Below, one piece after another: positions 24,137 to 53,942 of a stretch of 64,000 nucleotides of DNA (within the stretch, counting starts at the first letter, position 1; each line of letters begins with the position of its first letter). A program made the translations under genes and the position numbers. Under the pieces are notes generated by a model. The model saw only the letters and a program-made list of their open reading frames with translations, had not been told where the DNA came from and made no database searches. Origin of the DNA: Candidatus Woesearchaeota archaeon (lineage in GTDB: Archaea; Nanobdellota; Nanobdellia; Pacearchaeales; GW2011-AR1); assembly GCA_964366325.1 (NCBI GenBank), contig CAYITD010000002.1, positions 32,428 through 96,427 on the forward strand, in the 5' to 3' direction.

Positions 24137-24137
24137 A

Positions 24138-25453: not shown

Positions 25454-26598
25454 AACTTCTTGTTCTATATCCTCACCCTCCAGAACCAGATGGCGTCAGT
25501 ATGCAAGGACATTATCTAATTAAAGGATTAAAAGAAAATGGCGTTGAAGTTTTACCTTGTGATCGTGAAAACAACATACAAAAAGAATGGAGTTATTTAT
25601 CTTTCAAACCAGATGCAGTTATAGGAATAGGTTTCTGGGCAGACGCTCCAGGACTAATACATAACCCAGAAGAATACGGTATGCTTGCTGTTCCTTGGTT
25701 CAATGCAGATGGGTGGGTTGCGAATTATCATGATGATCTAAACAGATTACCTCTACTAGTCGCAACAAGCAATTGGGTAAAATCTACTTACATAAGAGAC
25801 GGAGTAAAAGGAGATAATATTCACGTATGTCCAATTGGTTTCGATCCAGAATATTTCCACCCTATTCCAAGAAACGATGACAAAGTAAAAGAATTAAGAA
25901 AACTTTTGGATATCCAAGAAGATGAAAAAATGATTTTAACGATTGGAGGCGATGCCACAAGCAAAGGAGCCCAAGAGATGTTTAAAGCTCTTTCAAAAAT
26001 CGGAGACAAATTCACAAAATGGAAATATGTTTTGAAAGTCTGGGACAGTTTCTCCGCAGATGATCATGGCAACGAAGAAGAAAAATTAATTAAAGAATTG
26101 GCCTTAGACGAAGATAGAATTACATATCTAAGAGGAAAATTATCTCCTGAGTTTATAGGCGTTTTGTTAAATGCCTGCGACATTTATGCTGCGCCTTCAA
26201 GACTAGAAGGTTTCGGTATGATTCAATTGGAAGCTCAAGCCTGTGGTAAACCAGTTATCTCCATAAATGTAGGCGGACCAAAAGATACAGTAGTTCATGA
26301 AAAAACTGGCTTTTTAGTCGATGTAGAAAAAGAAATAAAACTAGAAAAAGAATGGGCATATCCTTGGATGGGTTTTGAAACAGAACATCAAATAGAATTC
26401 AAAGAGCCAAAGACGTTTGCATATAGAGCAAATATAGATCAATTAGCGGATTACACTTTAAAACTTCTTACCGATGATTCTCTAAGAGAAAAAATGGGAA
26501 AAGATGCCGCAGAACATGCCCTAAAGAACTTCCACTATAAAGTCACGGCCAAACGCATGATAGATCTGATAGAAAAACATGCGTTGAAAAAGAGTTAA
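25450..26598 (+). CDS. Glycosyltransferase family 4 (GT-B)
   Basis: PSRLEGFGMIQLEAQACGKPVI and TGFLV, the E-x7-E type region; ATGA overlap with the deacetylase. Confidence 0.8.
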   Translation: MKLLVLYPHPPEPDGVSMQGHYLIKGLKENGVEVLPCDRENNIQKEWSYLSFKPDAVIGIGFWADAPGLIHNPEEYGMLAVPWFNADGWVANYHDDLNRLPLLVATSNWVKSTYIRDGVKGDNIHVCPIGFDPEYFHPIPRNDDKVKELRKLLDIQEDEKMILTIGGDATSKGAQEMFKALSKIGDKFTKWKYVLKVWDSFSADDHGNEEEKLIKELALDEDRITYLRGKLSPEFIGVLLNACDIYAAPSRLEGFGMIQLEAQACGKPVISINVGGPKDTVVHEKTGFLVDVEKEIKLEKEWAYPWMGFETEHQIEFKEPKTFAYRANIDQLADYTLKLLTDDSLREKMGKDAAEHALKNFHYKVTAKRMIDLIEKHALKKS

Positions 26599-26602
26599 AA
26601 AA

Positions 26603-26938
26603 TTACTCATACTCTATCTTAATTTCAATTGCCTCAGGAGGAACAATCGGACCCTTGTCATTAAGTCTTATACCTTCTTTAAACTCATCTTCTAACTCTC
26701 TTTTTAAAACACTTTTAAAAGACTCACGGTCTAACGCCTCACTAGATTTAAATCTACGAACTCTTACACCATAATTAACAAGAGGAAAAGAATTAATTCC
26801 ATAATAAAATTGAGGGTTAAAATAATAAGCTATCATTTCAGTTTTACCTAAAACTCTAGCAACCTTGCTCGGCTTTTCAACAAGAGGACCTTTCACATAG
26901 ACAACCAAGCTAGCCAATGACATAATTTTCCTTTGCAT
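26603..26938 (-). CDS. Hypothetical protein (111 aa)
   Basis: Intact ORF; no family recognised. Confidence 0.4.
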   Translation of the reverse strand: MQRKIMSLASLVVYVKGPLVEKPSKVARVLGKTEMIAYYFNPQFYYGINSFPLVNYGVRVRRFKSSEALDRESFKSVLKRELEDEFKEGIRLNDKGPIVPPEAIEIKIEYE

Positions 26939-26965
26939 TCATGACTTAAAAAGTTAATTATTCCA

Positions 26966-28942
26966 TCACTGCGGTAAAACAGCATCCCATGGTGTGACAT
27001 ACCTTGGATTAAGCGGCTGTTTCCTTGTTCCACCGCTTGGAATACACACACCATTTGAACAAGAACAAGTAATCATTTGGCTGTTTACACTATTACCGCC
27101 TAATGTTGAATTATAAGCGCATCCAAATTCTCTAAGACTACTGGTTCCCAAGCAAATATCCTCTTGATAATTTTGTGGAGTTGTTGCAAGATACGCTCTT
27201 CCCTTAATAAGCACATTGCCATTGTCTGTATCAACGCAAATTGGACTGCAAACATTTGGTTGTCCAATACAAGCATATCCGTTCTCTAATTGGCAGATAG
27301 ATGAACAACCATCTCCACTGCCAGCATTTTGATCATCGCACGTTTCCCCAGGGAAGATTAAACCATCTCCACAAACAGATTGCTCATTTCTGCAAAGAGA
27401 TGAACAGCCGTCTCCATTTAATCTACTTCCATCATCGCACTCCTCCCCTCCAACAACAGTTTCAATAACATTATTTCCACACCTAGGACCAACGACAACA
27501 GTTGCATAATCATCTCCCAAAAAGGTAGGAGTTATAGTCAAACCATGTCCAGCATCGTAATAGGTCTGATCCTTAGGCAAAACAACATAAGAAGAATCAT
27601 CTTCATGTGAAGAGGTGTGAGGAGAAAAATCAAGAAGCACACTATCAACTTTCCCAAATTGGTTATTTCCCTGAGGAATAACTATTACTCCATCAGTACG
27701 TATTAAAACTCCATCAAATGCTCCAGGCCCTTTAGAATTATAAATAGATAAATCATATCCGATAGGTCTTCTGTATTCAATATAATAACTATCCGTAATA
27801 GAATCTATATCAGTAGTAGGTTCAAAGGGAACCCTCAAAGTCTTTATTCCCAAAGAACTAGTTTCAATAGGCTCTATATTAACTGCCACTGGTGTCTGTC
27901 TATTATGCATTTTAACTTGGGAACTAGATAACCATCCAAATCTAGATTTATGATACGCCCCGTAGTGGGCATAATAAAAAGAAGTCCCCATTATATCAAA
28001 AATATCCCCATATTCTTCAATATTCGCAGAACTGTAGCAAGAACTTTGAAAAGGCGAACTTCCACATTCTAAATCTCCAGAATGAAAAACGCCAAGATTA
28101 TGTCCAAATTCATGAGCAGCAGTTCCGCTATCAATATATGTTGGATTACTTATAGCACTCAATGAAAGAGGAAAAGTACCTTGGCTTGGAACATTCACAT
28201 TTAGCCAACCAACTGTGCCTAAACCAGAATAAGGGCAACTCGTAGAAGGAAAAACAAAAAAGACACGATCATAATTTACAAAATTAACAAACTGACTTGC
28301 CACACTAATAGCTCCATCTCTTAACATTCCCAAACCACACTTTTGAGTTGAAAAAGCAGATTGAGAAAAAGGAAGAGTATACCATCCATAAACATCTCCA
28401 GAAAGGAAGGTTTGATTGTAAGAAGACTCCCTCATATAGCTATTAATAGATTTCTGCCTGCTAGCGTCAAAAAATCTATCTCTTACATCCTGTAAAGACA
28501 TAGGCGCATTAGAAGGGTTATTATTAAAATTAACAAGAATGACGGCCGTTCTCTGTTCTCCTAAAGAAGAAACTCCCGAACCAGCAACAACACCACTATC
28601 TAAAATTTCCAAAGAATCAACCCCAAACATAGATTCCTCAGAAGCAGTATTAACAAAATTCCCAGAAATTCTTATGTTCTGCCCAGAGATAGAGATCTTT
28701 TCAATATCGGCCTGGGAAAATTGAAGCTTATAAGTTGCATCGCCAGTATTAATATAAAATTCAAAAAAACTGTTTGCTCCATCATAGTGAACAATCTCAA
28801 CAGTTCCTTCTAAAGTCAAAGGAGAATAAAACACTTCGCGATTAATAAAAAGAAAAAAAGCCATATAGACTGCAAATAAAAACACTAAAGCACTAACAAA
28901 AAAAACAAACACTTTTCTCTGCCTCTTTCTCATAAAATACAA
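26966..28942 (-). CDS. Secreted metzincin-type zinc metalloprotease with C-terminal Myxococcus-type cysteine-rich repeats
   Basis: N-terminal TM/signal and HEFGHNLGVFH (HExxHxxGxxH). There are two repeats, CGNNVIE..GEECDDGSRLNGDGCSSLC and CGDGLIFPGETCDDQNAGSGDGCSSIC, then a further Cys-rich tail. Confidence 0.75.
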   Translation of the reverse strand: MYFMRKRQRKVFVFFVSALVFLFAVYMAFFLFINREVFYSPLTLEGTVEIVHYDGANSFFEFYINTGDATYKLQFSQADIEKISISGQNIRISGNFVNTASEESMFGVDSLEILDSGVVAGSGVSSLGEQRTAVILVNFNNNPSNAPMSLQDVRDRFFDASRQKSINSYMRESSYNQTFLSGDVYGWYTLPFSQSAFSTQKCGLGMLRDGAISVASQFVNFVNYDRVFFVFPSTSCPYSGLGTVGWLNVNVPSQGTFPLSLSAISNPTYIDSGTAAHEFGHNLGVFHSGDLECGSSPFQSSCYSSANIEEYGDIFDIMGTSFYYAHYGAYHKSRFGWLSSSQVKMHNRQTPVAVNIEPIETSSLGIKTLRVPFEPTTDIDSITDSYYIEYRRPIGYDLSIYNSKGPGAFDGVLIRTDGVIVIPQGNNQFGKVDSVLLDFSPHTSSHEDDSSYVVLPKDQTYYDAGHGLTITPTFLGDDYATVVVGPRCGNNVIETVVGGEECDDGSRLNGDGCSSLCRNEQSVCGDGLIFPGETCDDQNAGSGDGCSSICQLENGYACIGQPNVCSPICVDTDNGNVLIKGRAYLATTPQNYQEDICLGTSSLREFGCAYNSTLGGNSVNSQMITCSCSNGVCIPSGGTRKQPLNPRYVTPWDAVLPQ

Positions 28943-28969
28943 TGAAATATATTATATTTAAAACTATAG

Positions 28970-30121
28970 TCAAACCTTTTTCAAGCTACTAATAATCTCC
29001 TGAAGGGAAAATTTCTTTACAGTTGTAACAACGTCTCCTCCGCCAGAAAAAATCAAAACATCAGAACCATTTTTGTCAAGAATCAAACCTGTAGGAAAAA
29101 ATACATCCTTATTTTCAAAAGTTCCTTTTTCATATTTTCTAATAGGTAAAATTAAAGGTTTTTCAGATTTCGCAATAATCTTTTTAGGATTATACAAATC
29201 TAGAAGAAGAGCGCCAGCACAGTATATATCCCTAAACTCTTCTTCTTTATCCTCTTTAATAAAATGCTCACGTAAAAAATCAGATATGCTCTTTTCTTTT
29301 CTAATGTGCCTATTTATCACGCCATGATAAATAAAAAGCCAACCATGTTTCGTCTTTAAAGGTGGTGGACCAGCACCCACTCTCCCAGAATCCCACTTTC
29401 CCTTCTGTGAAATTTCCAATGCGAAAGACTCACCCCAATAAGTTAAATCTTGAGAGAAGGAAAGCCAGATATTAGGAGAAGTAAAATTAAAATTTCCCTC
29501 AGGACGATTAAAAGCAAGATATTTATGATTTATCAGTTCAGGGAATATTGTAACATCTTTGTTTTGATGGCCAAAAATTATGCCTCTTCTATACCATTTT
29601 TTAGAATCATTTGAAATTGCTAAGTTTGTAGAAACGTTTCCTGTCCTTGATAAGCCAACATAAGTCATAACATACAAATCCTTTATTTTTGTTATTCTTG
29701 GGTCTTCAACTCCCAGTTCTCCATCCCATTCAAGCCCTGAAAAAGAAGGCTTCTGTTCAATACTCTTTACTTTAAATCCTGAAGAATCAAGAACAACACG
29801 TCTAAAATGAGATATGAAAGTAAGTCTTTTTGTATTATCCTTAAAAGTAAAATCTAAATCAGAAAAGTCTTTTATTTCCGATTTAGGAAACTTGTCAATT
29901 GTTATTTTGAATTTTTCCTCTCCAGAAAAACGGGGAGCATAACAATATTTTTCATCATCTGTTTTTTTCAGTTTTTCTATAACTCTCACATACAAAACTA
30001 TATCTCCATTAGAAAGCCTAGCTACGCCTGGATTCATTGTGCCAATAACTTCAAATTTAGTCGATGAAGGAGTTATATTTTCAGGAGATAAAAGAACTGC
30101 CTCTCTTTTTGATTTTATCAT
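28970..30121 (-). CDS. GH130-family glycoside phosphorylase/hydrolase (beta-mannoside type, PH1107-like)
   Basis: NPGV, GVEDPRITKI, NKDVTIFPE, FNRP and GWLFIYHGV follow the GH130 five-bladed propeller motif order. Confidence 0.75.
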   Translation of the reverse strand: MIKSKREAVLLSPENITPSSTKFEVIGTMNPGVARLSNGDIVLYVRVIEKLKKTDDEKYCYAPRFSGEEKFKITIDKFPKSEIKDFSDLDFTFKDNTKRLTFISHFRRVVLDSSGFKVKSIEQKPSFSGLEWDGELGVEDPRITKIKDLYVMTYVGLSRTGNVSTNLAISNDSKKWYRRGIIFGHQNKDVTIFPELINHKYLAFNRPEGNFNFTSPNIWLSFSQDLTYWGESFALEISQKGKWDSGRVGAGPPPLKTKHGWLFIYHGVINRHIRKEKSISDFLREHFIKEDKEEEFRDIYCAGALLLDLYNPKKIIAKSEKPLILPIRKYEKGTFENKDVFFPTGLILDKNGSDVLIFSGGGDVVTTVKKFSLQEIISSLKKV

Positions 30122-30131
30122 TGTAAAAGTT

Positions 30132-31274
30132 TTAAATCAATAAAACCCTCTTATTTTTTAAAGATTCATAAGCCAAAATATAAGTTCCAGCGTTCCAACC
30201 TTGTCCTCCACCAATGCTTGGTTTTCCAGTTTTTCCATGTATCCATTCACTAAAATTCTCGTTCATCAAAAGGTTAGCTTCTGCCACTTTCTCAAGTTGC
30301 TCTTTCGCTTCCTTAAACATTTTTAACTTTATCAAAGAGAGAACATAAAAAGATCCTATATAAGGCCAAACGCCTCCGTTCAAATACGAAAAAGGTTTTC
30401 CAGCATCAGAATCTTTAAAGTAATCCTTCCATTCTTTAGTTCCCTGTTTTATAGGAGGGTAAATTGCTTTAACAGGAAAGGGAAAGTCAATCTTATTTTT
30501 TTTAATATAACTTATAATTTTCTTAGCCTTTAGTTCATCAGCAAGACCAAACAAAATAGCTAATAAATTACCCAAAGAATCAAACCACTCACCTATTTCT
30601 CTGTATTTATTATGATTTTTCCATCTATAAGCATAATAATAATTTCCATTCCATAAAAGACAATCATCTTTGTCTTCATTAACTTTTCTTCTCAACGCTT
30701 CAGCCTCTTTAGTCTTCCCAGTAATTATAAGAACTTTATAATAAAGAGCCTGCGTGTTAATTGTATGTCCATACCTGTGAGGAAAAGCATCCTGCCAATC
30801 AGTTGTAGGCAATTGTTCTAAAAGTCCATCCTCCCCCATATCTTGATAAGAAAGCCAAACAAGAGCCTTTTTTATATTACCTTCCAATTTCTCAAACAAA
30901 GATAGATCCCTATATCTTTCCTTAAAAACATAGCATCCAATTATGAACCAAAGAGAAGAATCAATCGATTTAAAATCTACATGCGCCTTCCTATCTTTTG
31001 AAAAAATATCAACTGCATTGGGTATCTGCCCTTTCTCTGATTGATGTTTTGCCAAAGTAATCAAAGAATTTTTGAAAGTCTCTCTAAAATCCGCTCCCAA
31101 AAGGGAAGAACCTAGAGAAATAATCATACTATCCCTTGCCCAAACAGCATCATATCCTGGAAAAGCAGCAAAAAAACCATTTGGAGTCGAAGCCTTTTCA
31201 AGTAACTCAACAGATTTCGCAAAGCATAAATCACTTTTCTCCCCAATCAATTTATTTCTTAGAATTTCACCCAT
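30132..31274 (-). CDS. Six-hairpin glycosidase-like protein (GDE_C / amylo-alpha-1,6-glucosidase-like)
   Basis: VWARDSMI, TTDWQD, GGVWPY and QGWNAGTY motifs typical of (alpha/alpha)6 GDE_C/GH100-like enzymes. Confidence 0.65.
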   Translation of the reverse strand: MGEILRNKLIGEKSDLCFAKSVELLEKASTPNGFFAAFPGYDAVWARDSMIISLGSSLLGADFRETFKNSLITLAKHQSEKGQIPNAVDIFSKDRKAHVDFKSIDSSLWFIIGCYVFKERYRDLSLFEKLEGNIKKALVWLSYQDMGEDGLLEQLPTTDWQDAFPHRYGHTINTQALYYKVLIITGKTKEAEALRRKVNEDKDDCLLWNGNYYYAYRWKNHNKYREIGEWFDSLGNLLAILFGLADELKAKKIISYIKKNKIDFPFPVKAIYPPIKQGTKEWKDYFKDSDAGKPFSYLNGGVWPYIGSFYVLSLIKLKMFKEAKEQLEKVAEANLLMNENFSEWIHGKTGKPSIGGGQGWNAGTYILAYESLKNKRVLLI

Positions 31275-31360
31275 TTTTCCTCTTTATGTTAATAACAGTA
31301 TTGTTTAATATTTAAAGGTTTTACCTTGCAATTTATAGAATATTATTTTAAGTTTGTTTC

Positions 31361-31696
31361 CTAGAGGACCTTGCTAATTTCAAACTTAATCTTTTCAAGA
31401 GTTTTATCATTAATTTTTCCTATTTTCATAATAATAAGATTTTTCTTAATTGTAAAAATTTTATCAATTCTAATCCTGCTTTGTTTTAACAATTTACCAG
31501 ATTCTAGACTGTCTTGATTTAGTATTAAAGAGAAAGGCTCATTTTTTATTACAGTTGTTAAAGGAACCAATACGCAATCTTCACATCTCTTGTTGAAGTT
31601 ATCATTTGAAACAATTATCGCTGGTCTAACCTTACTACCTCCTTGATCACTAAATGGATAAGGTAATAAAACTAACTCTCTTTGTTGGAATATCAT
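31361..31696 (-). CDS. mazF: Type II toxin-antitoxin toxin, PemK/MazF endoribonuclease
   Basis: RELVLLPYPFSDQGGSKVRPAIIVSND is the canonical MazF N-terminal motif. Confidence 0.85.
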   Translation of the reverse strand: MIFQQRELVLLPYPFSDQGGSKVRPAIIVSNDNFNKRCEDCVLVPLTTVIKNEPFSLILNQDSLESGKLLKQSRIRIDKIFTIKKNLIIMKIGKINDKTLEKIKFEISKVL

Positions 31697-31697
31697 G

Positions 31698-31958
31698 TTA
31701 TTTTCTTAAATAAGAAGCCCAGATATCATCCTCTTTATTGTCCCAAACTTCTTTTAAAGAGTCTTCATTGTATTTTAAAATATCCTCAAAATCATCTTTC
31801 ATAGATTGAGAAACCCTATCTGCCTTTTCGATTAAAATCTTTCCTTCTGTTTCAACTAATAATAACTCATCACCCTGTTCAATTCCTACATTTTCCCTCA
31901 TAGAGGTTGGAATTGCTATTTGCCCTTTCTCCGAAACTCTAACTGTCTTAATTTCCAT
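31698..31958 (-). CDS. mazE: AbrB/MazE/SpoVT-type antitoxin
   Basis: [28 protein letters not shown] is a swapped-hairpin AbrB-like motif. There is a 1-nt gap to mazF. Confidence 0.8.
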
Positions 31959-31964
31959 GATCGT

Positions 31965-31980
31965 GTAAGAATTTTCTTAC
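31965..31980. promoter_or_regulatory. 16-bp perfect palindrome GTAAGAA-TT-TTCTTAC between a TATA-like box and the mazE start (candidate operator)
   Basis: Read directly. On the minus strand, TTTATAAG lies just upstream and the mazE ATG (31958) about 7 nt downstream. Confidence 0.45.
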
Positions 31981-32002
31981 TTATAAATATTTCCAATTTA
32001 AT

Positions 32003-32917
32003 TTATTCCCACTTTTCATACTTTCTAGAACCACCAAACCATTCAGCATAATCTAAATTGGGAGTTTTATTTTCCTCTCTTTCTTGGCGACTATTTTTAA
32101 AAACACGCCCTCCTTCTATAACCTGACCAAGCAAATAAATTGGATTTTGACTTGTTTGAAAAAATATTTTTCCTCTAGCGACTGGTCTAGTTTCTCTAAC
32201 AAGAGCAACAGCACCCATAAACTCTTCTGGAGAGGCTAGATAGGGAGAACTAACAGTAAGATCATCAACCCATCTAGTATATGCGCAGCCTCTTTCCTTA
32301 GCTTTCGAATCAAGCAAATCATCTAAATCATATAAGGCTCTATTAAACAAAGGCATACTGTGAGGAGATCCTTGAGGAAGAGATCTTTGATCGTTATAAG
32401 TTACTGTACACACTTGTGCTAAAAATCCTGCACATTCAATTCTTTCTTCTTGTCCAAAGTCACCAAATGCTTTATAAAAAAAATCAAAAACCTGCCTTAT
32501 TCCAACATTATTAAATGCGTTTGCTAAATCAAAAGATAAAACTGAGGCACAAGGAACATGGGTTTCCAAACTTCTCTTTGGGCTCCACCCTTTTTCACCT
32601 CCATGCGCAGTTGAATGTATAGATCCTCTCTGAATAACAGGAACTAATCTTCTCAGAAAGTATCCAAATTCTTCATTTGGAACTGCCAAAGCCCTCTTTT
32701 TCCCATTCACCTCTTGTTCCCATCTTGAATACAACTTTCCCCTTTGATACAAATCTCTCATTCTAACCATAGCAGTCTCCACTTCGTTTAGTGGAAAAAG
32801 TGTCTCTTCCGTTCCTTCCATAGCTTCAACAAGCAGAGTCTTTGCGCTAGTATCTAAAATTCTAAATGGGTCTCTTGCCTCTGCTATATAATTATCAAAT
32901 TCATTTGTAGCTACCAT
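32003..32917 (-). CDS. Stand-alone reverse transcriptase (304 aa, RT domain only; retron/Abi/UG-like)
   Basis: The ordered RT motifs are: NGKKRALAVPN (motif 1), FLRRLVPVI (2), AHGGEKGWSPKRSLETH, VLSFDLANAFNNV (A), LPQGSPHSMPLFN (B), YTRWVDDLTVSS (C, YxDD), ARGKIFF (D) and IYLLGQVI (E). No maturase, endonuclease or effector extension is present. Confidence 0.8.
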   Translation of the reverse strand: MVATNEFDNYIAEARDPFRILDTSAKTLLVEAMEGTEETLFPLNEVETAMVRMRDLYQRGKLYSRWEQEVNGKKRALAVPNEEFGYFLRRLVPVIQRGSIHSTAHGGEKGWSPKRSLETHVPCASVLSFDLANAFNNVGIRQVFDFFYKAFGDFGQEERIECAGFLAQVCTVTYNDQRSLPQGSPHSMPLFNRALYDLDDLLDSKAKERGCAYTRWVDDLTVSSPYLASPEEFMGAVALVRETRPVARGKIFFQTSQNPIYLLGQVIEGGRVFKNSRQEREENKTPNLDYAEWFGGSRKYEKWE

Positions 32918-33013
32918 TTTACCTCTTTTACTTGATTTGAGCTATCTAAGAATTATAAATACATTTGTGTGATTTGCAATAATACTTAAAAACTCAACTA
33001 GTTTCCAATCAAA

Positions 33014-33328
33014 ATGAAATATAGAGCGAAATTCGAAATAGATTGTGGAGTTTCAAATGGTTATGGTTTGAAATGTCCAGATAATGTAGAAAGAACAGAA
33101 TCATTTTCTGAAGAAAATGATCAACTAGCTTATCAAGAGTCTATGAGGATGGCTGAAAGCTTCTCTAATGATTATTTGAGTAATCCGAACACAGGTCTAA
33201 CCACAGTTAAATTAAAGTCATTAAGAGAAAAAGACAGAGAAGTTTCTTTTAATGAATGTGGGTCAACTGTTCAGCGTTCAATGTTACAGCACATATTAAC
33301 TATGGATACAAAACAAGAGAGAGTTTAA
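33014..33328 (+). CDS. Hypothetical protein (104 aa), divergent from the RT
   Basis: Intact ORF 96 nt from the RT start; no family recognised. Confidence 0.35.
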   Translation: MKYRAKFEIDCGVSNGYGLKCPDNVERTESFSEENDQLAYQESMRMAESFSNDYLSNPNTGLTTVKLKSLREKDREVSFNECGSTVQRSMLQHILTMDTKQERV

Positions 33329-33339
33329 TCTCATTTTAA

Positions 33340-35553
33340 TCAAACCAATTCTTCCATCTCAAGTCTCGCAGAAAGATAAGCCAAAGTTGATTCCGCTCCC
33401 TGATTCAAATTTAAATCATTTTTATCTAAGCCATCATAACATCCACCAGTACCTTCATTATAAACAACCTGATTCAATGTATTTTTTCCTAAAAACCATT
33501 GAAAAGCTTGTAGGGCCTTTCTCTCATATTCAGAATCATTCGCGATCTTATAAGCCAAAGAAAGAGCTTGAACCATAGCTGCAACATCCAAAGGCTGTTG
33601 ATCATAATAAGCCTTCTGTCCACCTTTTTTATACCAACCATTCTGACCTACAGGAACAAATAAATCATTCTCAAAAGTTTTGGACATTAAGAAGTTTAAA
33701 GAGGAAATAGCAACATCAAGATACTCTTTATTTTGTGTACTGATATACGCATAAAAAAGAGCCTCGCACATTCTGCTATTAGAATAAGTCAATTCATTTT
33801 CAAACCAATTCCAATCCGATGAAGAATTTTCTTTATACAATCCAACAAGATAATCTGAAAACTTTCTTATATTTTTGATAGTATCTTCAGAATAGTTATC
33901 TTTATTGTAATAGTATAAACTAGAAATAACATAAGAAATAGCCCTTGGTGCATGAAACTCAGAAGTTACAGGGATAGATTTTAAGAAAATTTCCTTCATT
34001 TCATTTCTTATTTCCTGAGGAATGGCTTGAAAGCTTGCGACTAAAGATAAAGAGCGCATGGCTCTTCCATGAGCTTCTTCACTCCAAGAAGATTTGTTTA
34101 TTTTTCTGTCCTTTGAAACAACATTATAAAATCTACCTTCTTTGCCCTGAACAAATTTAACATAATTCAGATAAGTCTTAAGCAATTGCAAAAATACAGG
34201 ACTCTTTGATCTATTATATAATTTGGCGGAAACAATTAAAGCCCTAGAATTATCATCCAAAGTATATCCTGAATTTTTATTTGGTTTAGTATATTTAGCA
34301 AACTGTATTATTCCAAAGTCGTCAGTGAGTCTTCTCATGTGTTTTGTATTTATTCTTGGAAGCTCCTCAAAATAAGTCTCTGGGATGGAAAAGAATTTTC
34401 TAATTTCATCTCCATAAGACAATGCGACGTTAGGCCAAGTCATATGTCTTGTAAACTCATAATTTGTCTGTTCTATATCTTTCATTTTTTTCTTATCTTT
34501 TAATATTTCCAATAATGCATCTTTAAAAGATTCAGAGTTATGAAAATCTGGCAATAAAACTCCGTGTTCAGGGCTAACAAGATCCTGGGCATGAAGGAAA
34601 GGAGTAGAAACAACGGCCCGTCCACAACCAAGAGCATAAGCTAAAGTTCCTGAAGTTATTTGTTCAGGAGTTAAAGAAGAAGAAACATAAATGTCAGTAG
34701 CCTTCAAATACTGTATAATTTCTTTCAAAGTTACATACTTGTTATAAAATTTCACATTATCCTGAATTCCAAACTTCTTAATCTGTTTGTCTAAAAAGTT
34801 TCTATACTTCTCTCCCTCTTGTTTTCTTACAACAGGATGGGTCGCGCCTACAATAAGATAAACTATGTTGGGATATTTTTTCACAACTTCAGGAAGAGCT
34901 TGAATAACATACTCATATCCCTTTCCACGATTTATCATACCAAAAGAAGATAATAAAATCTTACCCTCAAATCCCATTTGCTTTTTAAGATTATTTTGCG
35001 ATTCATAAGACACAACTGGAATACCATGGGCGATCACTTTTATAGGAGTTGAAATATTATAGTCTCTCTTTAAAATTTCAACACCTTTAGGAGTCATAAC
35101 CACAATTTGAGTAACTTTCTCAGCTATCCTTCTGACAACATCCAGTCTTTTTTTATCAGGCGATGGAAGAATACTATGAAAAGTAATAAATGAAGGTTTC
35201 TTAAGAACACTTAAAAAATCAATTATAAATTCGCCGTATTCTCCTCCAAAAATCCCAAATTCGTGCTGAATAGAAACTAATTTTACACTGTCATTTTTAT
35301 TTATCTTTTCTGCAACTTTCTTATATTCAGGTCGATTGCTATCACTCAGTTGATAAATAACTTTTTTAGGATAATTGTAAACGTTCACGCCATTATTATT
35401 CATAGCAAGAATTTTAGTTTTCAAAAATGGAGAAAATTTCTTTTCAATAGCGTCTGAAAGATCTTTTGTAAAAGTCGCTATACCGCACTCTCTTGGAGGA
35501 TAAGTACTAACAAATAGAATACAATTCTCATCAACCTCTCTCTGCATCAACAA
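33340..35553 (-). CDS. GT4 glycosyltransferase fused to a C-terminal ~340-aa (alpha/alpha)-toroid-like domain
   Basis: N-terminal FVSTYPPRECGIATFTKDL and SGTLAYALGCGRAVVSTPF are GT4 motifs. The C-terminal half is helical-repeat rich, with no motif I can name. Confidence 0.7.
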   Translation of the reverse strand: MLMQREVDENCILFVSTYPPRECGIATFTKDLSDAIEKKFSPFLKTKILAMNNNGVNVYNYPKKVIYQLSDSNRPEYKKVAEKINKNDSVKLVSIQHEFGIFGGEYGEFIIDFLSVLKKPSFITFHSILPSPDKKRLDVVRRIAEKVTQIVVMTPKGVEILKRDYNISTPIKVIAHGIPVVSYESQNNLKKQMGFEGKILLSSFGMINRGKGYEYVIQALPEVVKKYPNIVYLIVGATHPVVRKQEGEKYRNFLDKQIKKFGIQDNVKFYNKYVTLKEIIQYLKATDIYVSSSLTPEQITSGTLAYALGCGRAVVSTPFLHAQDLVSPEHGVLLPDFHNSESFKDALLEILKDKKKMKDIEQTNYEFTRHMTWPNVALSYGDEIRKFFSIPETYFEELPRINTKHMRRLTDDFGIIQFAKYTKPNKNSGYTLDDNSRALIVSAKLYNRSKSPVFLQLLKTYLNYVKFVQGKEGRFYNVVSKDRKINKSSWSEEAHGRAMRSLSLVASFQAIPQEIRNEMKEIFLKSIPVTSEFHAPRAISYVISSLYYYNKDNYSEDTIKNIRKFSDYLVGLYKENSSSDWNWFENELTYSNSRMCEALFYAYISTQNKEYLDVAISSLNFLMSKTFENDLFVPVGQNGWYKKGGQKAYYDQQPLDVAAMVQALSLAYKIANDSEYERKALQAFQWFLGKNTLNQVVYNEGTGGCYDGLDKNDLNLNQGAESTLAYLSARLEMEELV

Positions 35554-35638
35554 GATAGCTAATTTGGATTAATAAATTTAACTCAATCTTATTGCTCGAA
35601 CTGAGTTAATACCCTCCAACTTGCTGTGGTTGGGATTT

Positions 35639-36022
35639 TTATTTTTTCTTGAATCCTAGAGCTGCTGAATTAATACAAAATCTTTTACAACCATTTGAAC
35701 CATCATCAAAAACATGACCTAAGTGCCCACCACATTTTTTACAAATCACTTCGACTCGACGCATTCCGTGACTGGAATCTTCTTTAAGCTCAACATTCTT
35801 TGTGTTAGCCGGTTCCGTAAAACTAGGCCAACCTGTTCCAGAATCAAACTTTGTATCGGAAGAAAAAAGCTCTGCACCACAACCAGCACAATTATACATT
35901 CCTTTCTCCTTGTTATGCAAATACTCACCAGTGAAAGGCTTTTCAGTTCCTTTTTCCCTCAGAATATCATGCTGTTCCTTACTAAGCTTATTCAATTTAA
36001 TCTTGTCTTTTCTTGCTTCCAT
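35639..36022 (-). CDS. msrB: Peptide-methionine (R)-S-oxide reductase
   Basis: CAGCGAELF, GWPSF, CKKCGGHLGHVFDDG and RFCINS. Confidence 0.92.
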   Translation of the reverse strand: MEARKDKIKLNKLSKEQHDILREKGTEKPFTGEYLHNKEKGMYNCAGCGAELFSSDTKFDSGTGWPSFTEPANTKNVELKEDSSHGMRRVEVICKKCGGHLGHVFDDGSNGCKRFCINSAALGFKKK

Positions 36023-36227
36023 AATTATTGATTATAGCTCCAAGTGCAACTATAATTAAAACTAAAGGAAGCCATGGAACATTGAAGTTAATGTATCCAG
36101 TCTCACTCAAAAACCAAATCACAGCTACAACCAAAACTATAAACCAAAATGTCGGAAAGCTCTTGTTTTTAACCATACAAAATGCAAAGAAGATAAGTTT
36201 ATAAATATTAAGAAGGCACTTTTTCAA
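35997..36227 (-). CDS. Small membrane protein (76 aa)
   Basis: Two hydrophobic helices; overlaps the msrB start region. Confidence 0.35.
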   Translation of the reverse strand: MKKCLLNIYKLIFFAFCMVKNKSFPTFWFIVLVVAVIWFLSETGYINFNVPWLPLVLIIVALGAIINNYGSKKRQD

Positions 36228-36237
36228 CTTTCCTTAA

Positions 36238-36675
36238 TTAATCTAACACTTCAACAAGCCCTTTTCTAACTCTCTTTTCCAATTCACACCTAGTAGAATA
36301 TGAAACTAAGCCGATAGATAATACATATATAGAGCCAAAAAGTAAGAGATCAGGATCCGACTTCATGTCCCTAGGCCTTAAAGAAGATTCATAACCTCTA
36401 ACTTCTCTTGCTAATTCAGCATCAGATGTTAAATCATTATGTTCCCCAATATTTTGTCTTAATAACTCTCCAGATTCAGAAGTCCGATCATCCGATAGAT
36501 TTAATGACTCATTAGCAACATAATTCGTCAAATTCTCTCTAAGTTCAACATATCTCTGAGCCTTAGGACCGATAAAAGAACTCGAGCTCGACTGAAGCAC
36601 TGTATAAATTCCCCCAATAGCACTACCAAACAAACCAGCCAACCCACCAACACTAATAAGTAAATTCCTATTCAT
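36238..36675 (-). CDS. Hypothetical membrane-anchored protein (145 aa)
   Basis: N- and C-terminal hydrophobic segments; no family recognised. Confidence 0.35.
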   Translation of the reverse strand: MNRNLLISVGGLAGLFGSAIGGIYTVLQSSSSSFIGPKAQRYVELRENLTNYVANESLNLSDDRTSESGELLRQNIGEHNDLTSDAELAREVRGYESSLRPRDMKSDPDLLLFGSIYVLSIGLVSYSTRCELEKRVRKGLVEVLD

Positions 36676-36777
36676 CTAAACCATCACAAAATTATGTTTT
36701 TAAATTTATAGCTAAAAATTGCAACATTATCCAAACAGACTATAAAACATTTAAAACCCACGCATCTATCTGATTTT

Positions 36778-38499
36778 ATGGAAAAAGAGCTGTTAAAATT
36801 CATAAGAGAAAATAATTTATCTCCTTTTAATAAAAATAAAACTCCTGTGAAAAATGAATCAGAAAGTATATACAAGACAAAAGATGCAAAAGCAATCCAT
36901 AATAAACTGCTTTCAACTTTATCATCAAAATTCTACTTCTCAGACACTTCAAATTTATTTAATTTCTTTTCCTCATTTCCAAACTCAAAAGAAAAAGAAG
37001 AAAGGCAAAATTTCTTTGAAAAACTAAAAGAAAAAATAGAAAACAATTTTCTTAATGAAATCAAAGAACCAAAAAGATGGTGGAACCATAAGTATAGTGT
37101 TATAGCCGTAACAGAAGATGAAAAAACATTTAACGAATTACAAAAAAAAGGTTGCCCAACACGTTTTCTAATAACTCCCTCAGATCTGGATTCCTTAGAA
37201 GATTATGATATAGTGCAAATAATAGATTGTGAAGGTTTCTCCAGAATGTTAGAAGGTTTACCACAATCTGTATTCATAGATTCAGTAGATGAAGCCTATC
37301 TTGAAAGACATCTAAAAACTCTATCTGGATGGACAGAAAACATAAAAATACTAAAACAAAATAAAACAAATAAAGAAATATTATCTATAGTAAGTGAATT
37401 GGAAGAATTATCTCCTTTACTTGATGATGGTAAAGCAAACAATATAAAAAAAGAAGACGTAGAGTCAAGTTTAATCGAAATAAACAAAGAGATCTCTTCA
37501 GAATTAAAAGGACTAACAGTTTCTGGAGAATCTCTGTATACAATGTTAAGCAAAAGTTCCCTGCCTGATGAATTAAACAAAATTATTGAAAAAGTCATCT
37601 CTAATTCTAAAATGCCTGAAAACTTATTCACAAGAAGTATCCCTGTTTCTATTGAAGAAAAAGAATTAGAAAATTTAATTAAAAGTCAAGGAGCAAAAGA
37701 ACACACAAACACAGCAGAAAAAATAAAAAGAAAAGCAGAACCATTAAGAAATTCGCCTAAAAAATTACAAGACCTTTCAGATCATTTGTTACTTTTTGAT
37801 TTCCTTTCTGGGATATCAAACTTCACATCTGAAGAAAAAAGTTTTCCTGTAAATTCAAACGAAATAATAATAGAAATTTCGTCTAATTTATTTTTAGAAA
37901 ATGCACAACCTATTTCATTTAGTCTAAATGATGAAAGCAGATGTTCAATTCTAACGGGAGCAAACAGTGGAGGAAAAACAACTCTGCTTGAACACATAAT
38001 TCAATTGATAAGTCTAACAAACCTGGGTCTCAGAATATCTGGAAAACTAAAAATGCCTGCATTTTCAGAAATATATTACTTTGCAAAAAACAAAGGAGCA
38101 GCAAACAAGGGAGCATTTGAAAATCTTCTGCTCCAAATGTCAAAAATAGAAGCTGGTAAAAATACCCTAATTCTAGCAGATGAAATAGAATCAGTAACAG
38201 AACCAGGAGTTGCAGGAGCAATTGTCTGTGCAACTGCAGACTACTTCATAAAAAAAGGCTGTTTTCTTGTTATCGCAACTCATTTAGGAAAAGAAATACA
38301 AAAAAACCTCCCAGAATATGCCAGAATAGATGGAATTGAAGCGAAAGGCCTTGATGAAAACTATGACTTGATAGTAGACCATAATCCAGTTCTAGGAAGA
38401 TTAGCAAATTCCACCCCAGAATTAATTATAAAAAAAATGGCAAACTCACACAAAGGAGATTACTTAGAATTTATATACAAATCAATAATAAAGGATTAA
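36778..38499 (+). CDS. MutS-related ATPase (MutS domain V only; archaeal MutS-like, no Smr)
   Basis: ILTGANSGGKTTLLEHI (Walker A), LILADEIESVTEP (Walker B) and ATHL; the N-terminal ~370 aa are unassigned. Confidence 0.7.
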   Translation: MEKELLKFIRENNLSPFNKNKTPVKNESESIYKTKDAKAIHNKLLSTLSSKFYFSDTSNLFNFFSSFPNSKEKEERQNFFEKLKEKIENNFLNEIKEPKRWWNHKYSVIAVTEDEKTFNELQKKGCPTRFLITPSDLDSLEDYDIVQIIDCEGFSRMLEGLPQSVFIDSVDEAYLERHLKTLSGWTENIKILKQNKTNKEILSIVSELEELSPLLDDGKANNIKKEDVESSLIEINKEISSELKGLTVSGESLYTMLSKSSLPDELNKIIEKVISNSKMPENLFTRSIPVSIEEKELENLIKSQGAKEHTNTAEKIKRKAEPLRNSPKKLQDLSDHLLLFDFLSGISNFTSEEKSFPVNSNEIIIEISSNLFLENAQPISFSLNDESRCSILTGANSGGKTTLLEHIIQLISLTNLGLRISGKLKMPAFSEIYYFAKNKGAANKGAFENLLLQMSKIEAGKNTLILADEIESVTEPGVAGAIVCATADYFIKKGCFLVIATHLGKEIQKNLPEYARIDGIEAKGLDENYDLIVDHNPVLGRLANSTPELIIKKMANSHKGDYLEFIYKSIIKD

Positions 38500-39038
38500 G
38501 GAAAATATTTCTTTAGCTCCAATCTTATTTTATCTAAACATCCATCTCTGGAAATGTAAGAAAAACGAGCAATAGGCCTACAAGAATTTTCAATTTCCTC
38601 TACAGCACTTGAAACATAACTCTCCCTGTCTCTAGGCCAAAATAACAAAAAAGGTCTCTGACAACAGTCCACCGTAGCAAGCATAGAACCAAGAGGCTTA
38701 CTTTTTTCAGTAAGATGGACCAATACACCTTTAGATTTATCTATTTCATCAATAGCAGCGTCAACCGAATCCTCAAGATCTCCCCCATTATCTCTAAATG
38801 TTTCATGAGGAGAATAACCTCTTTGTCCATAAACGGCTGTAGTAATATCAAGGACCCTATCATGAAAAGAATAGTGTTGCACATCGTTAGGTTGACAAGC
38901 CAAGACAAATTTTGGTTTTTTTCCAGAACCACTCATCAAAGCTGGCTTAACACTTGCACCTTTACTAGCAATCGCTCCTGCAATCTGCCCCCTAAGCTCA
39001 TCTAAGCGCTGGTCTCCACCAAATTCCTTTACAGCCAT
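38496..39038 (-). CDS. Hypothetical protein (180 aa), visibly more GC-rich than its neighbours
   Basis: The ATG at 39038 gives MAVKEFGGDQ.... It shows an alternating beta-alpha pattern (KFVLAC..., KGVLVHLTE..., FLLFW...). It converges on the MutS-like gene with a 4-nt overlap. Confidence 0.4.
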   Translation of the reverse strand: MAVKEFGGDQRLDELRGQIAGAIASKGASVKPALMSGSGKKPKFVLACQPNDVQHYSFHDRVLDITTAVYGQRGYSPHETFRDNGGDLEDSVDAAIDEIDKSKGVLVHLTEKSKPLGSMLATVDCCQRPFLLFWPRDRESYVSSAVEEIENSCRPIARFSYISRDGCLDKIRLELKKYFP

Positions 39039-39126
39039 AAATAAAAACAAATTACCTTATTTTTATTCTTTTCTGTGTTGAAAGCTAAATGCCCAGATTT
39101 ATAAACAAAAATCTCTACAAAATTAA

Positions 39127-40005
39127 ATGCGAGTCAAATACATATTTTCATCAAGAAAAACCTGGATGGCCAGATCTATGCCTACTAACAGACATAAGAA
39201 AGCAATCCCAAAAATAGTAACAGAAGTAATAAAAATCTCAGACGTAGTGTTAGAAATCCTAGATTCAAGATTTATAGAAAAAACAAGAAATATAGATGTT
39301 GAAAACCTGATAAAAGAACATGGGAAGAAAATTATCTATGTAATAAATAAATCAGATCTTGTAAATAAGGATAATCTATTACTCGAAATAAAAAATAGCA
39401 CGCTTTATCCTTATGTTCTTATATCTTGTAAATCGGGTTTGGGTGTTAAAGAATTAAGAAATAGAATAAAAATTGAAGTTAAAAGGTTAAATATATTGGA
39501 CGAACACAAAAAAGCACATATAGGAGTAGTCGGTTATCCAAATACAGGAAAAAGTTCTCTAATAAACATTCTAACAAGAAAAGGTTCAGCAAGGACTTCT
39601 GCGCAAGCTGGATTCACAAAAGGTATACAAAGAATAAAACTTACAAAAGATATACTCATTCTTGATACTCCTGGAATAATTCCATTAGATGAAAACTCAA
39701 CCACAGAATTAAAAGATCTGAAAAAACACGCAGAAATAGGGGTAAGAACTTACGACAAAGTAAAAAACCCTCATTTCGTAGTTTCTGAGATAATGAAAAA
39801 CCATCCAGGTTTATTAGACTCATTTTACAAAATAAATTCAGAAAACGACCCTCAAATACTTTTAGAAGAATTAGGAAGAAAAAAGAACTTAATACTTAAG
39901 AAAAATAAAATAGATCTAGACAGAACAGCAAGACTAATCTTGAAAGATTGGCAAAAAGGAGACATCAGAGAAAAAGATAATGTCAAAAAGTATGTTATGG
40001 TTTAA
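39127..40005 (+). CDS. Circularly permuted GTPase (YlqF/RbgA/Nog2-like ribosome biogenesis GTPase)
   Basis: G4 (INKSDL) precedes G1 (GYPNTGKSSLIN) and G3 (DTPG). The start may be the internal Met at 39166. Confidence 0.75.
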   Translation: MRVKYIFSSRKTWMARSMPTNRHKKAIPKIVTEVIKISDVVLEILDSRFIEKTRNIDVENLIKEHGKKIIYVINKSDLVNKDNLLLEIKNSTLYPYVLISCKSGLGVKELRNRIKIEVKRLNILDEHKKAHIGVVGYPNTGKSSLINILTRKGSARTSAQAGFTKGIQRIKLTKDILILDTPGIIPLDENSTTELKDLKKHAEIGVRTYDKVKNPHFVVSEIMKNHPGLLDSFYKINSENDPQILLEELGRKKNLILKKNKIDLDRTARLILKDWQKGDIREKDNVKKYVMV

Positions 40006-40240
40006 AGCAAAAAGATATGGTTGGGGTTGGTATCCCTCTAGTTTAGAAGGTTGGCTTGTTTTAGGCCTATATGTCATTCTAGAAGTTTCGTCTTTTATAA
40101 GAATAGATTCAAAATCTCATTCAGTAAGTGATACTTTGATTAATTTTATACCTCTAACACTATTACTTTCTATCATTCTCATTCTAATTTGTTATTTAAA
40201 AGGTGAGAAACCAAAGTGGAACTGGGGAGACCAACTCTAA
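39980..40240 (+). CDS. Small membrane protein (86 aa)
   Basis: Two TM helices; overlaps the GTPase 3' end. Confidence 0.35.
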   Translation: MSKSMLWFKAKRYGWGWYPSSLEGWLVLGLYVILEVSSFIRIDSKSHSVSDTLINFIPLTLLLSIILILICYLKGEKPKWNWGDQL

Positions 40241-40308
40241 AGCATATTTTTCAAACTATACCTTGCTAAACAACAATAATTTAAATAATGGATTAAGGTA
40301 AATAAAAA

Positions 40309-53851: not shown

Positions 53852-53942
53852 GGATTTGTTTAATAACTACCTACACGAAGCCAGATTATTTCATATTTTT
53901 GAGAGAAATAAGGTTTTTATAGATTGTTTTTATTGTGTAAGT

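Follow-up and report, generated by a model that had tools for sequence, protein, structure and literature searches.

The 64,000-nucleotide stretch of a Candidatus Woesearchaeota contig analysed here (the window) encodes a small reverse transcriptase (RT) that is a member of a small, sharply delimited and previously undescribed retron-related family of about 80 clusters, confined to DPANN archaea. The genes mazE and mazF, located directly downstream of the RT gene (Table 1), are judged to be neighbours outside the RT unit. Their adjacency to the RT gene, which among the examined loci is unique to this genome, is most likely a coincidence and not a new RT-toxin defence system. We regard it as rather probable that the intact retron-clade RT of this DPANN-only family is a stand-alone accessory unit, while mazEF is a separate toxin-antitoxin (TA) module and the 104-aa open reading frame on the other side of the RT gene (ORF104) an unrelated ORFan.

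Retron-clade RTs are nearly all bacterial. Those of archaea are reported to account for a few percent of archaeal RTs and are uncharacterised (PMC8632793). A DPANN lineage which keeps the catalytic core without a helical thumb, a neighbouring ncRNA or an effector would test the minimal needs of a retron-type RT as well as the way in which such enzymes find their templates.

Table 1. Features at the RT locus; coordinates are positions in the window.
Feature	Position	Strand	Length	Characteristics
mazF/PemK-like endoribonuclease toxin	31361..31696	-	111 aa	PF02452 2.3e-17, NF007386 4.5e-7
mazE-like antitoxin, AbrB/SpoVT-type	31698..31958	-	86 aa	PF04014 1e-8, TIGR01439 7e-12
RT-mazE spacer	31959..32002	-	44 nt	TATA-like TTTATAA at 31987-31981; perfect 7+7 palindrome GTAAGAAaaTTCTTAC at 31980-31965, just before the mazE ATG
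RT gene	32003..32917	-	304 aa	ATG start; ORF list, Pfam RVT_1, PADLOC retron RT profiles, PDB profile search, AF2, Foldseek, family alignment
Spacer upstream of RT	32918..33013	-	96 nt	TATA-like TTTATAA at 32959-32953; SD-like GAGGT at 32925-32921
ORF104	33014..33328	+	104 aa	ORFan; no Pfam, PADLOC or NCBIfam family

An earlier note, made from the sequence alone, had described a small, intact, single-domain RT of a DPANN-like archaeon with all RT motifs in order and no fused effector domain, and this description was borne out. The translation contains KKRALAVPN, SLETH, SFDLANAF, LPQGSPHSMPLFN, YTRWVDDLTVSS and YLLGQ. With 34.9 bits, Pfam RVT_1 exceeds its gathering score of 29.6 and is the only domain; a second one was absent from the Pfam, PADLOC and NCBIfam profile searches. 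The relatives of the RT are found in metagenome-assembled genomes of Woesearchaeota, Nanoarchaeota and Pacearchaeota, and the sole database match of ORF104, which is ORF104 itself, is labelled 'Nanoarchaeota archaeon'. The contig is present in the samples H43, H51 and H52 of its source, the Hainich aquifer. The replacement of the retron signatures NAxxH and VTG by SLETH and LLG, also pointed out in the note, holds across the whole family alignment: SLETH and YLLG are the family consensus, in which only the His and the Gly of the two signatures are retained. NAxxH and V[TA]G are present in distant bacterial matches from the same scans. In the alignment of 42 sequences, D130, G183, D218, D219 and K250 are invariant along with other residues, D130 and D218-D219 being the catalytic ones. 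With only 35-58% identity to the window RT, some 40 sequences nevertheless agree in all catalytic and motif residues, which indicates purifying selection. The AF2 model of the RT has a pLDDT of 95 and a pTM of 0.90. Judged by its sequence and this model, the RT is intact and predicted to be catalytically competent.

After residue 245, the AF2 model contains, according to DSSP, nothing but strands and two short helices (5-6 residues). The xDD motif is followed by a median of 86 residues in the family, compared with 106-128 in bacterial retron-type RTs. The C-terminus of the family is thus predicted to be shortened and to have no helical thumb, and the N-terminal helical region to be extended.

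The statement of the note that the RT fits no recognisable class could not be upheld, as PADLOC profiles, a PDB sequence search and Foldseek with the AF2 model all put it clearly in the retron clade. In the profile-HMM classification that the note had proposed, the PADLOC retron RT profiles match the window RT with E-values of 6.6e-28 and downward. The best of them is RT_VI (6.6e-28, 95.8 bits, over part of the profile), RT-Protease_XI (1.5e-21) is among the better ones, and the best-ranked PADLOC families among the matches listed are all retron RT profiles. All of these profiles match 42 of 42 family members. Family-wide, II-A (best E-value 4e-34) and III-A (3e-31) are ahead of VI (2e-29), the preference for RT_VI being not general to the family. 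In the PDB profile search, the RT of Ec86 was the best match (1.5e-20), followed by that of Ec67 (2e-14), while group II, DRT2 and Cas-RT entries had E-values of at least 1e-7. The top 18 Foldseek matches are all retron RTs (TMq 0.58-0.65). The NCBIfam model retron_St85_RT gave 70.9 bits with a cutoff of 235. By sequence profiles and predicted fold, the RT is therefore assigned to the retron clade but to no defined retron type.

Other RT classes were rejected, for group II introns and diversity-generating retroelements (DGR) in agreement with the note. No group II intron RNA of Rfam and no maturase match was found in the window (TIGR04416, 19.3 bits, cutoff 300), and in both the PDB search and Foldseek all retron RTs are placed ahead of the group II RTs. 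A direct repeat of TR/VR type is absent within +/-8 kb of the RT gene (24000-41000), and the DGR RT 8ub7 reaches only 3.2e-3 by sequence and the 33rd position by fold. For the UG/Abi/DRT group, NCBIfam Drt2 gave 23.3 bits (cutoff 390), and the structures of DRT2, DRT9 and DRT3 rank below those of retron RTs.

An exhaustive search of 1.84 billion representatives (clusters at 50% identity) delimits the family. Eighty representatives score at E<=1e-30; full-length members reach 200-410 bits, followed by a plateau of generic retron RTs at about 100 bits. Named sources of family members are all DPANN (Woesearchaeota, Pacearchaeota and Nanoarchaeota), and the family is found in only a few percent of the DPANN genomes of these groups. 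Tandem-RT and kinase-RT proteins, with scores between those of the family and of generic retron RTs, were rejected as near relatives, as it takes two ordinary retron-like domains (26-35% identity) added together to reach these scores. A viral origin was also rejected, since no family member was present among the contigs of IMG/VR.

The survey of the genomic context covered 90 retrieved loci. A family RT is present in about 60 of them, and 44 non-redundant loci provided a census of 150 RT neighbours. The note had considered MazF a coupled effector, and had made this dependent on a neighbourhood of mazEF or the 104-aa ORF conserved among homologs. However, tblastn with MazE, MazF and ORF104 gave zero matches in the 90 loci, and PemK does not recur among the 150 neighbours, so that the proposed coupling is unsupported. 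The census was dominated by a metallophosphoesterase (15), TopA (7), methyltransferases and Kae1. The commonest neighbour, a wHTH/PLD-like protein of about 280 aa adjacent to the RT in 33 loci, was rejected as a true partner: it forms at least 1565 clusters versus 42 for the RT, also occurs without the RT and co-diverges with the housekeeping neighbours and not with the RT. The metallophosphoesterase is encoded convergently, often overlaps the RT stop codon and has a weak PADLOC match to PDC-S10. It was rejected as an effector, because its position reflects host synteny and it co-diverges with TopA (rho 0.79), not with the RT. The RT gene of some relatives is directly adjoined or overlapped, in an operon-like manner, by a small ORF of unknown function. 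Only two small families of such ORFs recur, one in L002 and L011 and another in L006 and L026 (once upstream, once downstream); the remainder are many unrelated singletons, several of them ordinary enzymes, and one hidden effector family is not supported. A conserved accessory or effector gene was thus not found in the family loci, where housekeeping genes or diverse ORFs of unknown function surround the RT, and no known effector or defence gene is consistently located beside the RT. Within the window, a defence island was likewise rejected as the context of the RT, the only clear defence-type matches being a type IIG restriction-modification-like gene and a PLD-like gene, both placed by motif about 17-21 kb away.

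Flanking genes of the family loci co-diverge with one another (rho 0.50-0.79), whereas the correlation of the RT with its flanks ranges from -0.01 to 0.39, values calculated from non-independent pairs of 8-21 loci. In RT-free genomes the same slot holds other cargo. As its divergence does not track that of the flanks, the RT appears to act as accessory cargo in a variable slot. The family would accordingly consist of single-gene accessory units, usually occupying by themselves a variable slot within a conserved block of housekeeping genes.

The spacer upstream of the window RT has no unusual fold (z-score -0.56). Its putative promoter and SD signals have a similar layout in the closest relative, L001 (TATTTATAA ... 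AAAAGAGGNAAAATG), and DNA homology between the window and L001 begins only 13 nt upstream of the RT start codon. The 423-nt region 32918-33340 folds with a z-score of -1.1 (16 of 100 shuffles fold as well), no Rfam family including retron msr matches in the window at E<=10, and inverted repeats suited to an msr-msd (a1/a2) were not found, nor was a conserved RNA structure within the RT coding sequence; the power of these tests is limited by sequences that are 40-50% identical, by an RNA that may lie in trans or be highly divergent and by a 423-nt region that can be compared with none of the relatives. The gaps beside the RT in the 44 loci are small, mostly -14 to +40 nt downstream and either up to 6 nt or 60-115 nt upstream, and therefore usually leave no room for an msr-msd. 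The sole conserved upstream element, a palindrome with a TATA box, was rejected as an ncRNA or operator of the RT, because genomes without the RT have it as well, ahead of the wHTH gene.

The divergent orientation of ORF104 and its distance of 96 nt from the RT start were given correctly in the note. Among 5.8 billion proteins, ORF104 has no homolog other than itself, and its single-sequence AF2 model is uninformative (pLDDT 44). GC and AT skew are positive on the plus strand over ORF104, as expected of a gene on this strand, and it is probably a real gene. ORF104 is an ORFan, and nothing ties it to the RT.

The position of the RT gene 44 nt upstream of a co-oriented mazE-mazF pair was likewise confirmed. 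The PF04014 and PF02452 matches are above the gathering scores, and the mazE stop codon is separated from the mazF start by 1 nt. From its sequence, the spacer between RT and mazE is inferred to be the putative promoter and operator of mazEF itself. The window RT would be served by promoter-like and SD-like signals of its own, and mazEF would be a separate, self-contained type II TA module, with the palindrome possibly acting as its operator. For annotation, the locus illustrates that an RT beside a TA pair should not be taken for a system unless the neighbourhood is conserved; here the linkage vanishes once relatives are inspected.

For the function of the family, we favour a stand-alone RT that would polymerise DNA on an RNA other than a classical cis ncRNA encoded next to it; the template may be trans-encoded, or a cellular or viral RNA. 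To judge from every retron-clade RT characterised so far, and from the patchy, flank-decoupled distribution of the family, the role of the product would most likely be an accessory one, in conflict or against viruses, and not a core cellular one.

Such a core role would apply if the RT were a domesticated housekeeping enzyme, inherited vertically in some DPANN lineages and performing a core nucleic-acid function. The same chromosomal positions recur, among genes for TopA, Kae1, MCM and ribosomal proteins and the widespread wHTH gene; the sequence is strongly conserved and the fold confident, no members occur on viral contigs and no effector is linked. The GC3 of the RT gene (0.220) is at the host background (0.238 +/- 0.036), which together with the housekeeping embedding is also compatible with a long-resident, domesticated gene. 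This reading is nevertheless unlikely, as the cluster count of the RT is only about 3% of that of the adjacent wHTH gene, RT-free genomes bear other cargo in the same slot, the RT does not diverge in step with its mutually correlated flanks, and the copy in the window lies in a wholly different context. The full-length reading frame, the invariant catalytic and motif residues, the very confident AF2 model and the promoter-like and SD-like signals conserved with L001 also speak against an inactive remnant of a retroelement, decaying and now without function. This is very improbable, even though the RT lacks a partner and an ncRNA, its thumb is truncated, and it stands alone in a foreign context in the window. 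A canonical retron, with a msr-msd hidden on the minus strand upstream of the RT (32918-33340) and antisense to a spurious or dual-use ORF104, is somewhat less improbable than a remnant. The ncRNA of a classical retron immediately precedes the RT on the same strand, ORF104 has no homologs, an imperfect 28-nt hairpin is found at 33203-33270, and the 'hyRNA' of type VI retrons is a precedent for retron RNAs that overlap coding sequence (10.1101/2025.10.22.683967). Yet the fold energy of the region is ordinary, retron msr of Rfam is not matched, the skew favours a coding gene on the plus strand, the TATA-like box of the RT is only about 40 nt from its ATG, L001 shows no upstream homology and in most relatives the gaps are too small for such an RNA.

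A functional unit of RT and mazEF, in which cDNA or RT activity would control MazF in a retron-like defence system comparable to type VI retrons, is also improbable, if a little less so than a hidden msr-msd. MazE or MazF homologs are found in no family locus, PemK is not among the recurring neighbours and one TA neighbour in 150 corresponds to the chance expectation. The co-orientation and the short distance of the two have to be set against the TATA-like box and palindrome that mazEF has of its own. The operon-like small ORFs of some relatives, variable as they are, make swappable, modular partners conceivable. The 44-nt spacer resembles the post-RT spacer of L001 although the downstream genes differ, but the motif common to both is the generic promoter consensus AAATATTTATAAG, which is also present upstream of the L001 RT. 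Type VI retrons are a precedent for an RT combined with a TA pair (bioRxiv 10.64898/2026.04.27.721009), and RT_VI is the best PADLOC profile of the window RT; this preference is not family-wide, however, and the type VI partners (Cro/C1 HTH and SP, upstream on the same strand) are absent. With this precedent, RT-TA coupling is not a new idea either, bacterial type VI retrons having been described in this way already (also 10.1101/2025.10.22.683967). Unlikely too, and less so than such a fixed unit, is a new class of stand-alone archaeal retron-clade RTs without cis msr-msd and helical thumb, with swappable cargo that includes MazEF here. An RT of this class might depend on an RNA supplied in trans, by the cell or by a virus, or be primed in an unconventional way, and the locus, if the reading is true, would be the first archaeal RT-controlled MazF system.

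Compared to known MazEF type II TA modules, the pair in the window, with an AbrB/SpoVT-type antitoxin, a PemK-fold toxin 1 nt further on and a palindrome in the promoter region, has nothing unusual in itself; only its place beside an RT is unusual, and this is not conserved. Type VI retrons such as Retron-Vpa2 and Retron-Sen3 consist of an SP toxin, a Cro/C1 HTH antitoxin and an RT, and the window RT resembles them in its best PADLOC profile. They were originally without recognisable ncRNA or detectable msDNA, with the RT beside a toxin-antitoxin pair (PMC7736814; 10.64898/2026.04.27.721009; 10.1101/2025.10.22.683967), and the gene of the HTH protein (91-110 aa) precedes the RT gene on the same strand or overlaps it, frequently accompanied by one for a small protein of 75-79 aa (PMC7736814; 10.64898/2026.04.27.721009). 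Here, in contrast, a MazE(AbrB)/MazF(PemK) pair is located downstream with promoter-like signals of its own and is not shared by relatives; the sole upstream ORF, ORF104, is divergent with no HTH or family match, and type VI partner genes do not appear in the neighbour census of the relatives. Retron types VIII and XI also comprise retron-clade RTs reported without recognisable ncRNA modules (PMC7736814). The DPANN family is like these and other ncRNA-less retron-clade RTs in this respect, and RT-Protease_XI is among the better profiles of the window RT, but its members are RTs alone, lacking fused domains as well as conserved neighbours, whereas types VIII and XI have a fused or linked protease or esterase. 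From bacterial retrons in general the family differs in its archaeal host, in SLETH for NAxxH and LLG for VTG, in a C-terminus that is reduced by 20-40 aa and modelled without a helical thumb, in a longer N-terminal helical region, in the lack of a detected contiguous msr-msd and of a conserved effector beside the RT, and in profile scores of about 60-100 bits, far under those within a type. Nevertheless, bacterial retron RTs (Ec86/Eco1, Ec67/Eco2, Ec78, Ec83 and Eco8) are its best sequence-profile and structural matches. Like them, the window RT is a single domain of about 300 aa and keeps the His of NAxxH, as SLETH, and it aligns with Ec86 both in the order of the motifs and across the retron-type region that separates motif 3 from motif 4.

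The 304-aa ORF described in the earlier note was recovered by ORF detection and translation with all the reverse transcriptase (RT) motifs quoted there, and so was its setting between a co-oriented mazE-mazF pair and a divergent 104-aa ORF (ORF104). The gap between mazE and mazF is 1 nt. The RT matches Pfam RVT_1 with 34.9 bits (gathering score 29.6), while no second domain was found with Pfam, PADLOC or NCBIfam, confirming that no effector domain is fused to it. The host is a DPANN archaeon, and the genes flanking the locus belong to sugar metabolism according to Pfam (GH130, a GDE/invertase-like hydrolase and a 737-aa GT1-family protein). Neither Rfam families (at the gathering threshold) nor tRNA genes were detected across the 64-kb window. 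The GC3 of the RT gene (0.220) equals the background of the window (0.238 ± 0.036), and there is therefore no sign of a recent foreign origin; its overall GC content is higher, which reflects the amino acid composition. No defence island surrounds the RT. The sole strong PADLOC matches in the window were to type IIG RM-like and PLD/DrmC-like profiles, and the ORFs that most likely correspond to them are located approximately 17–21 kb away.

Features of the RT locus and of related loci (window positions unless a fetched relative locus, L, is named)
Feature	Position	Strand	Description
PemK/MazF protein	31361..31696	-	111 aa; above Pfam cutoff
MazE/AbrB-type protein	31698..31958	-	86 aa; above Pfam cutoff; begins 44 nt past RT stop
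Perfect palindrome GTAAGAAaaTTCTTAC	31980-31965	-	Directly ahead of mazE ATG, in 44-nt spacer
TATA-like TTTATAA	31987-31981	-	In 44-nt spacer ahead of mazE
RT	32003..32917	-	304 aa; ATG start
ORF104	33014..33328	+	104 aa; divergent; 96 nt from RT start
350-aa ORF, two HKD motifs	49569-50621	-	Probable source of PLD/DrmC-like matches; assigned by motif only
1047-aa ORF, NPPY motif	53802-56945	+	Probable source of type IIG RM-like matches (best 6e-53); assigned by motif only
~55-nt element	L005 ~5760-5830; L015 ~5790-5860; L038/L042 ~4890-4960; L091-L093 ~3880-3960		L091-L093 RT-free

The RT had been regarded as fitting no class, a view not upheld by profile, PDB-sequence and structure comparisons, all of which place it in the retron clade. 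With PADLOC, RT_VI was the best profile (6.6e-28), followed by about 35 other retron RT profiles. When the family profile was compared to all PDB sequences, the retron Ec86 RT was the top match (1.5e-20) and Ec67, Ec83, Ec78 and Eco8 came next; group II intron, DRT2 and Cas-RT sequences were found at 1e-7 or worse and a DGR RT at 3e-3. An AlphaFold2 model built from the family alignment (pLDDT 95, pTM 0.90) had exclusively retron RTs as its best 18 Foldseek matches in the PDB (TMq 0.58–0.65), with the GsI-IIC, G2L4, DRT2, DRT9 and DGR RTs ranking below. Judged by profile scores, the RT belongs to no defined retron type: the profiles II-A, III-A, VI, 'other', 'outgroup' and XI score about equally over 42 family members, and the NCBIfam retron models are far under their cutoffs (retron_St85_RT, 70.9 bits vs 235).

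Among 5.8 billion proteins, 42 relatives were found at 35–58% identity, and all named sources are Woesearchaeota or Nanoarchaeota. Most are approximately 300 aa long, while a subset of 373–411 aa carries an N-terminal extension. In layout and RT match statistics, L008 (JANBVM010000034.1; labelled 'Patescibacteria group bacterium') is identical to the Woesearchaeota contig L007; mis-binning of an archaeal contig is the likely explanation. When 1.84 billion representatives at 50% identity were searched exhaustively with an HMM, 80 proteins were found at E<=1e-30, with full-length family members at 200–410 bits, and 5550 proteins at E<=1e-10; below the family the score drops sharply to approximately 100 bits, where generic retron-type RTs form a plateau. 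Three bacterial proteins with tandem retron-like RT domains, both with YxDD (P0219, 1381 aa; P0221, 719 aa; P0298, 977 aa, Myxococcota), score in between only because two domain scores add; in P0219, a Ser/Thr protein kinase domain is additionally present at the N-terminus. P0233 (910 aa) and P0239 (886 aa) are fusions of a retron-like RT with a histidine-kinase-like 'HisKin-conflict' domain (PF22561).

In the family alignment, the catalytic triad (D130 and D218-D219), G183, K250, H120 and other residues are invariant, pointing to an active polymerase under purifying selection. The retron signatures NAxxH and VTG are replaced by SLETH and YLLG. A median of 86 residues follows xDD, compared to 106–128 in bacterial retron-type RTs from the same scans. 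Four helices precede the fingers in the model, and only beta strands and two helices of 5–6 residues lie beyond the palm, so that no helical thumb is predicted. Most members end in an aromatic [YF]-x-x-W motif, here a confidently modelled YEKWE (window 32003-32020). These RTs stand alone, have a reduced thumb and form a lineage of the retron clade that is restricted to DPANN and of which no description was found in the literature. Archaeal retron-type RTs make up about 4% of archaeal RTs, and DGRs dominate in DPANN (PMC8632793).

The flanks, for which a search for a conserved ncRNA had been proposed, gave nothing in support of a retron-type RNA. Folding of the 423-nt and 96-nt stretches upstream of the RT was no better than that of shuffled sequences (z -1.1 and -0.6), no convincing a1/a2-type inverted repeats were found, and a permissive Rfam scan returned noise only. 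DNA homology to the closest relative, L001, is restricted to the RT ORF, 13 nt upstream and approximately 37 nt downstream. Among 44 non-redundant loci, most downstream gaps measure -14 to +40 nt; upstream, the gap is either <=6 nt or 60–115 nt, the latter filled by a host element. Inside the coding sequence, the consensus energy was about zero throughout (RNAalifold in sliding windows along the codon-aligned sequences of 29 RT genes, with power limited at this divergence). The RT would make DNA on an RNA other than a classical ncRNA encoded in cis, and a trans-encoded RNA may be its template.

In total, 90 loci were fetched: 23 from GTDB species representatives (16 DPANN), 62 from metagenomes (41 at family-level similarity) and five by exact look-up; about 60 carry a family RT. 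MazF had been put forward as an RT-coupled effector, for which the co-oriented placement of mazEF speaks; no homolog of MazE, MazF or ORF104 was found by tblastn in any of the 90 loci, and PemK was not recurrent among 150 neighbours (44 non-redundant loci, two neighbours to either side of each RT). The relatives therefore lack a shared neighbourhood with mazEF or the small ORF, an outcome that the earlier note itself gave as refuting its reading, and it is very unlikely that RT and MazF act as one system. The layout of the spacer ahead of mazE is what a leaderless TA operon under autoregulation would be expected to show, and the likeness of this spacer to the one past the RT in L001 reduces to a generic promoter consensus, AAATATTTATAAG, also present upstream of the L001 RT. 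ORF104 is an ORFan whose single database match is itself (a 'Nanoarchaeota archaeon' MAG); it also occurs on Hainich groundwater contigs. Strand skews suggest a real gene on the + strand, and a single-sequence structure model was uninformative. Most likely it is by chance that the RT lies next to this ORFan and to a mazEF module of the ordinary kind.

Pfam annotation of the 150 neighbours was led by metallophosphoesterase (15), TopA (7), methyltransferases (4), Kae1 (3), NTP-transferase (3) and DUF192 (3). In 33 loci, a protein of approximately 280 aa with weak wHTH and PLD-like Pfam matches is encoded upstream, in divergent orientation to the RT; a convergent metallophosphoesterase lies downstream in 24, often with a 4-nt overlap with the RT stop, and TopA further out in 18; the N-extended subclade lies between DUF192 and Kae1/MCM. 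These candidates were rejected as RT partners and are host genes. The wHTH protein has at least 1565 clusters at 63–76% identity among its best matches compared to 42 clusters for the RT, and RT-free genomes carry other cargo on the divergent side of its gene. The conserved element between both genes (ACAACACTATGGACAAAATATGTCAAGAAATATGTATATAG..CAAGTC, a TGACA-N5-TGTCA palindrome plus TATA-like box) is equally present upstream of the wHTH gene in RT-free genomes and is probably an operator with a divergent promoter. In pairwise-identity correlations, co-divergence is seen among the flanking genes (rho 0.50–0.79) but not between these and the RT (rho -0.01 to 0.39). The RT is therefore accessory cargo, found repeatedly in a variable slot within a conserved block; either it is exchanged via the conserved flanking sequence, or its evolution follows a pace of its own. 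In L003 (2747-5887, -), whose sequence contains an X/N run, the RT-adjacent TopA (1046 aa) has an apparent LAGLIDADG intein-like insertion.

A heterogeneous set of small ORFs abuts or overlaps the RT in some loci. Two small families recur (L002/L011/L033 and L006/L026); others match M78/IrrE, thymidylate kinase or sigma-70 r2 weakly or resemble ordinary enzymes upon sequence inspection, and no known effector was matched. In L024:4156-7400, the locus of the closest relative (58% identity), three same-strand ORFs of 142, 465 (weak sigma-70 region 2 match) and 149 aa flank the RT. In composition these seem to differ from the AT-rich proteins typical of DPANN, and together with the RT they may constitute a small island.

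The locus harbors an intact retron-clade polymerase of a DPANN lineage that keeps its conserved active site and stands by itself beside mazEF; an RT-MazF system is not supported. No family member was found on IMG/VR viral contigs. An accessory conflict or antiviral role is most likely, given the clade, the patchy distribution and the decoupling from the flanks. In contrast to canonical retrons, neither the signature motifs nor a contiguous ncRNA or an effector were found in the family. The closest conceptual analogue of an RT-toxin pairing is the bacterial type VI retron, consisting of RT, small toxin and HTH antitoxin (10.64898/2026.04.27.721009; 10.1101/2025.10.22.683967; PMC7736814), but neither the partners nor the gene order that define it are present here. 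The likeness to retron RTs lies in the catalytic core, which works as in a retron RT.
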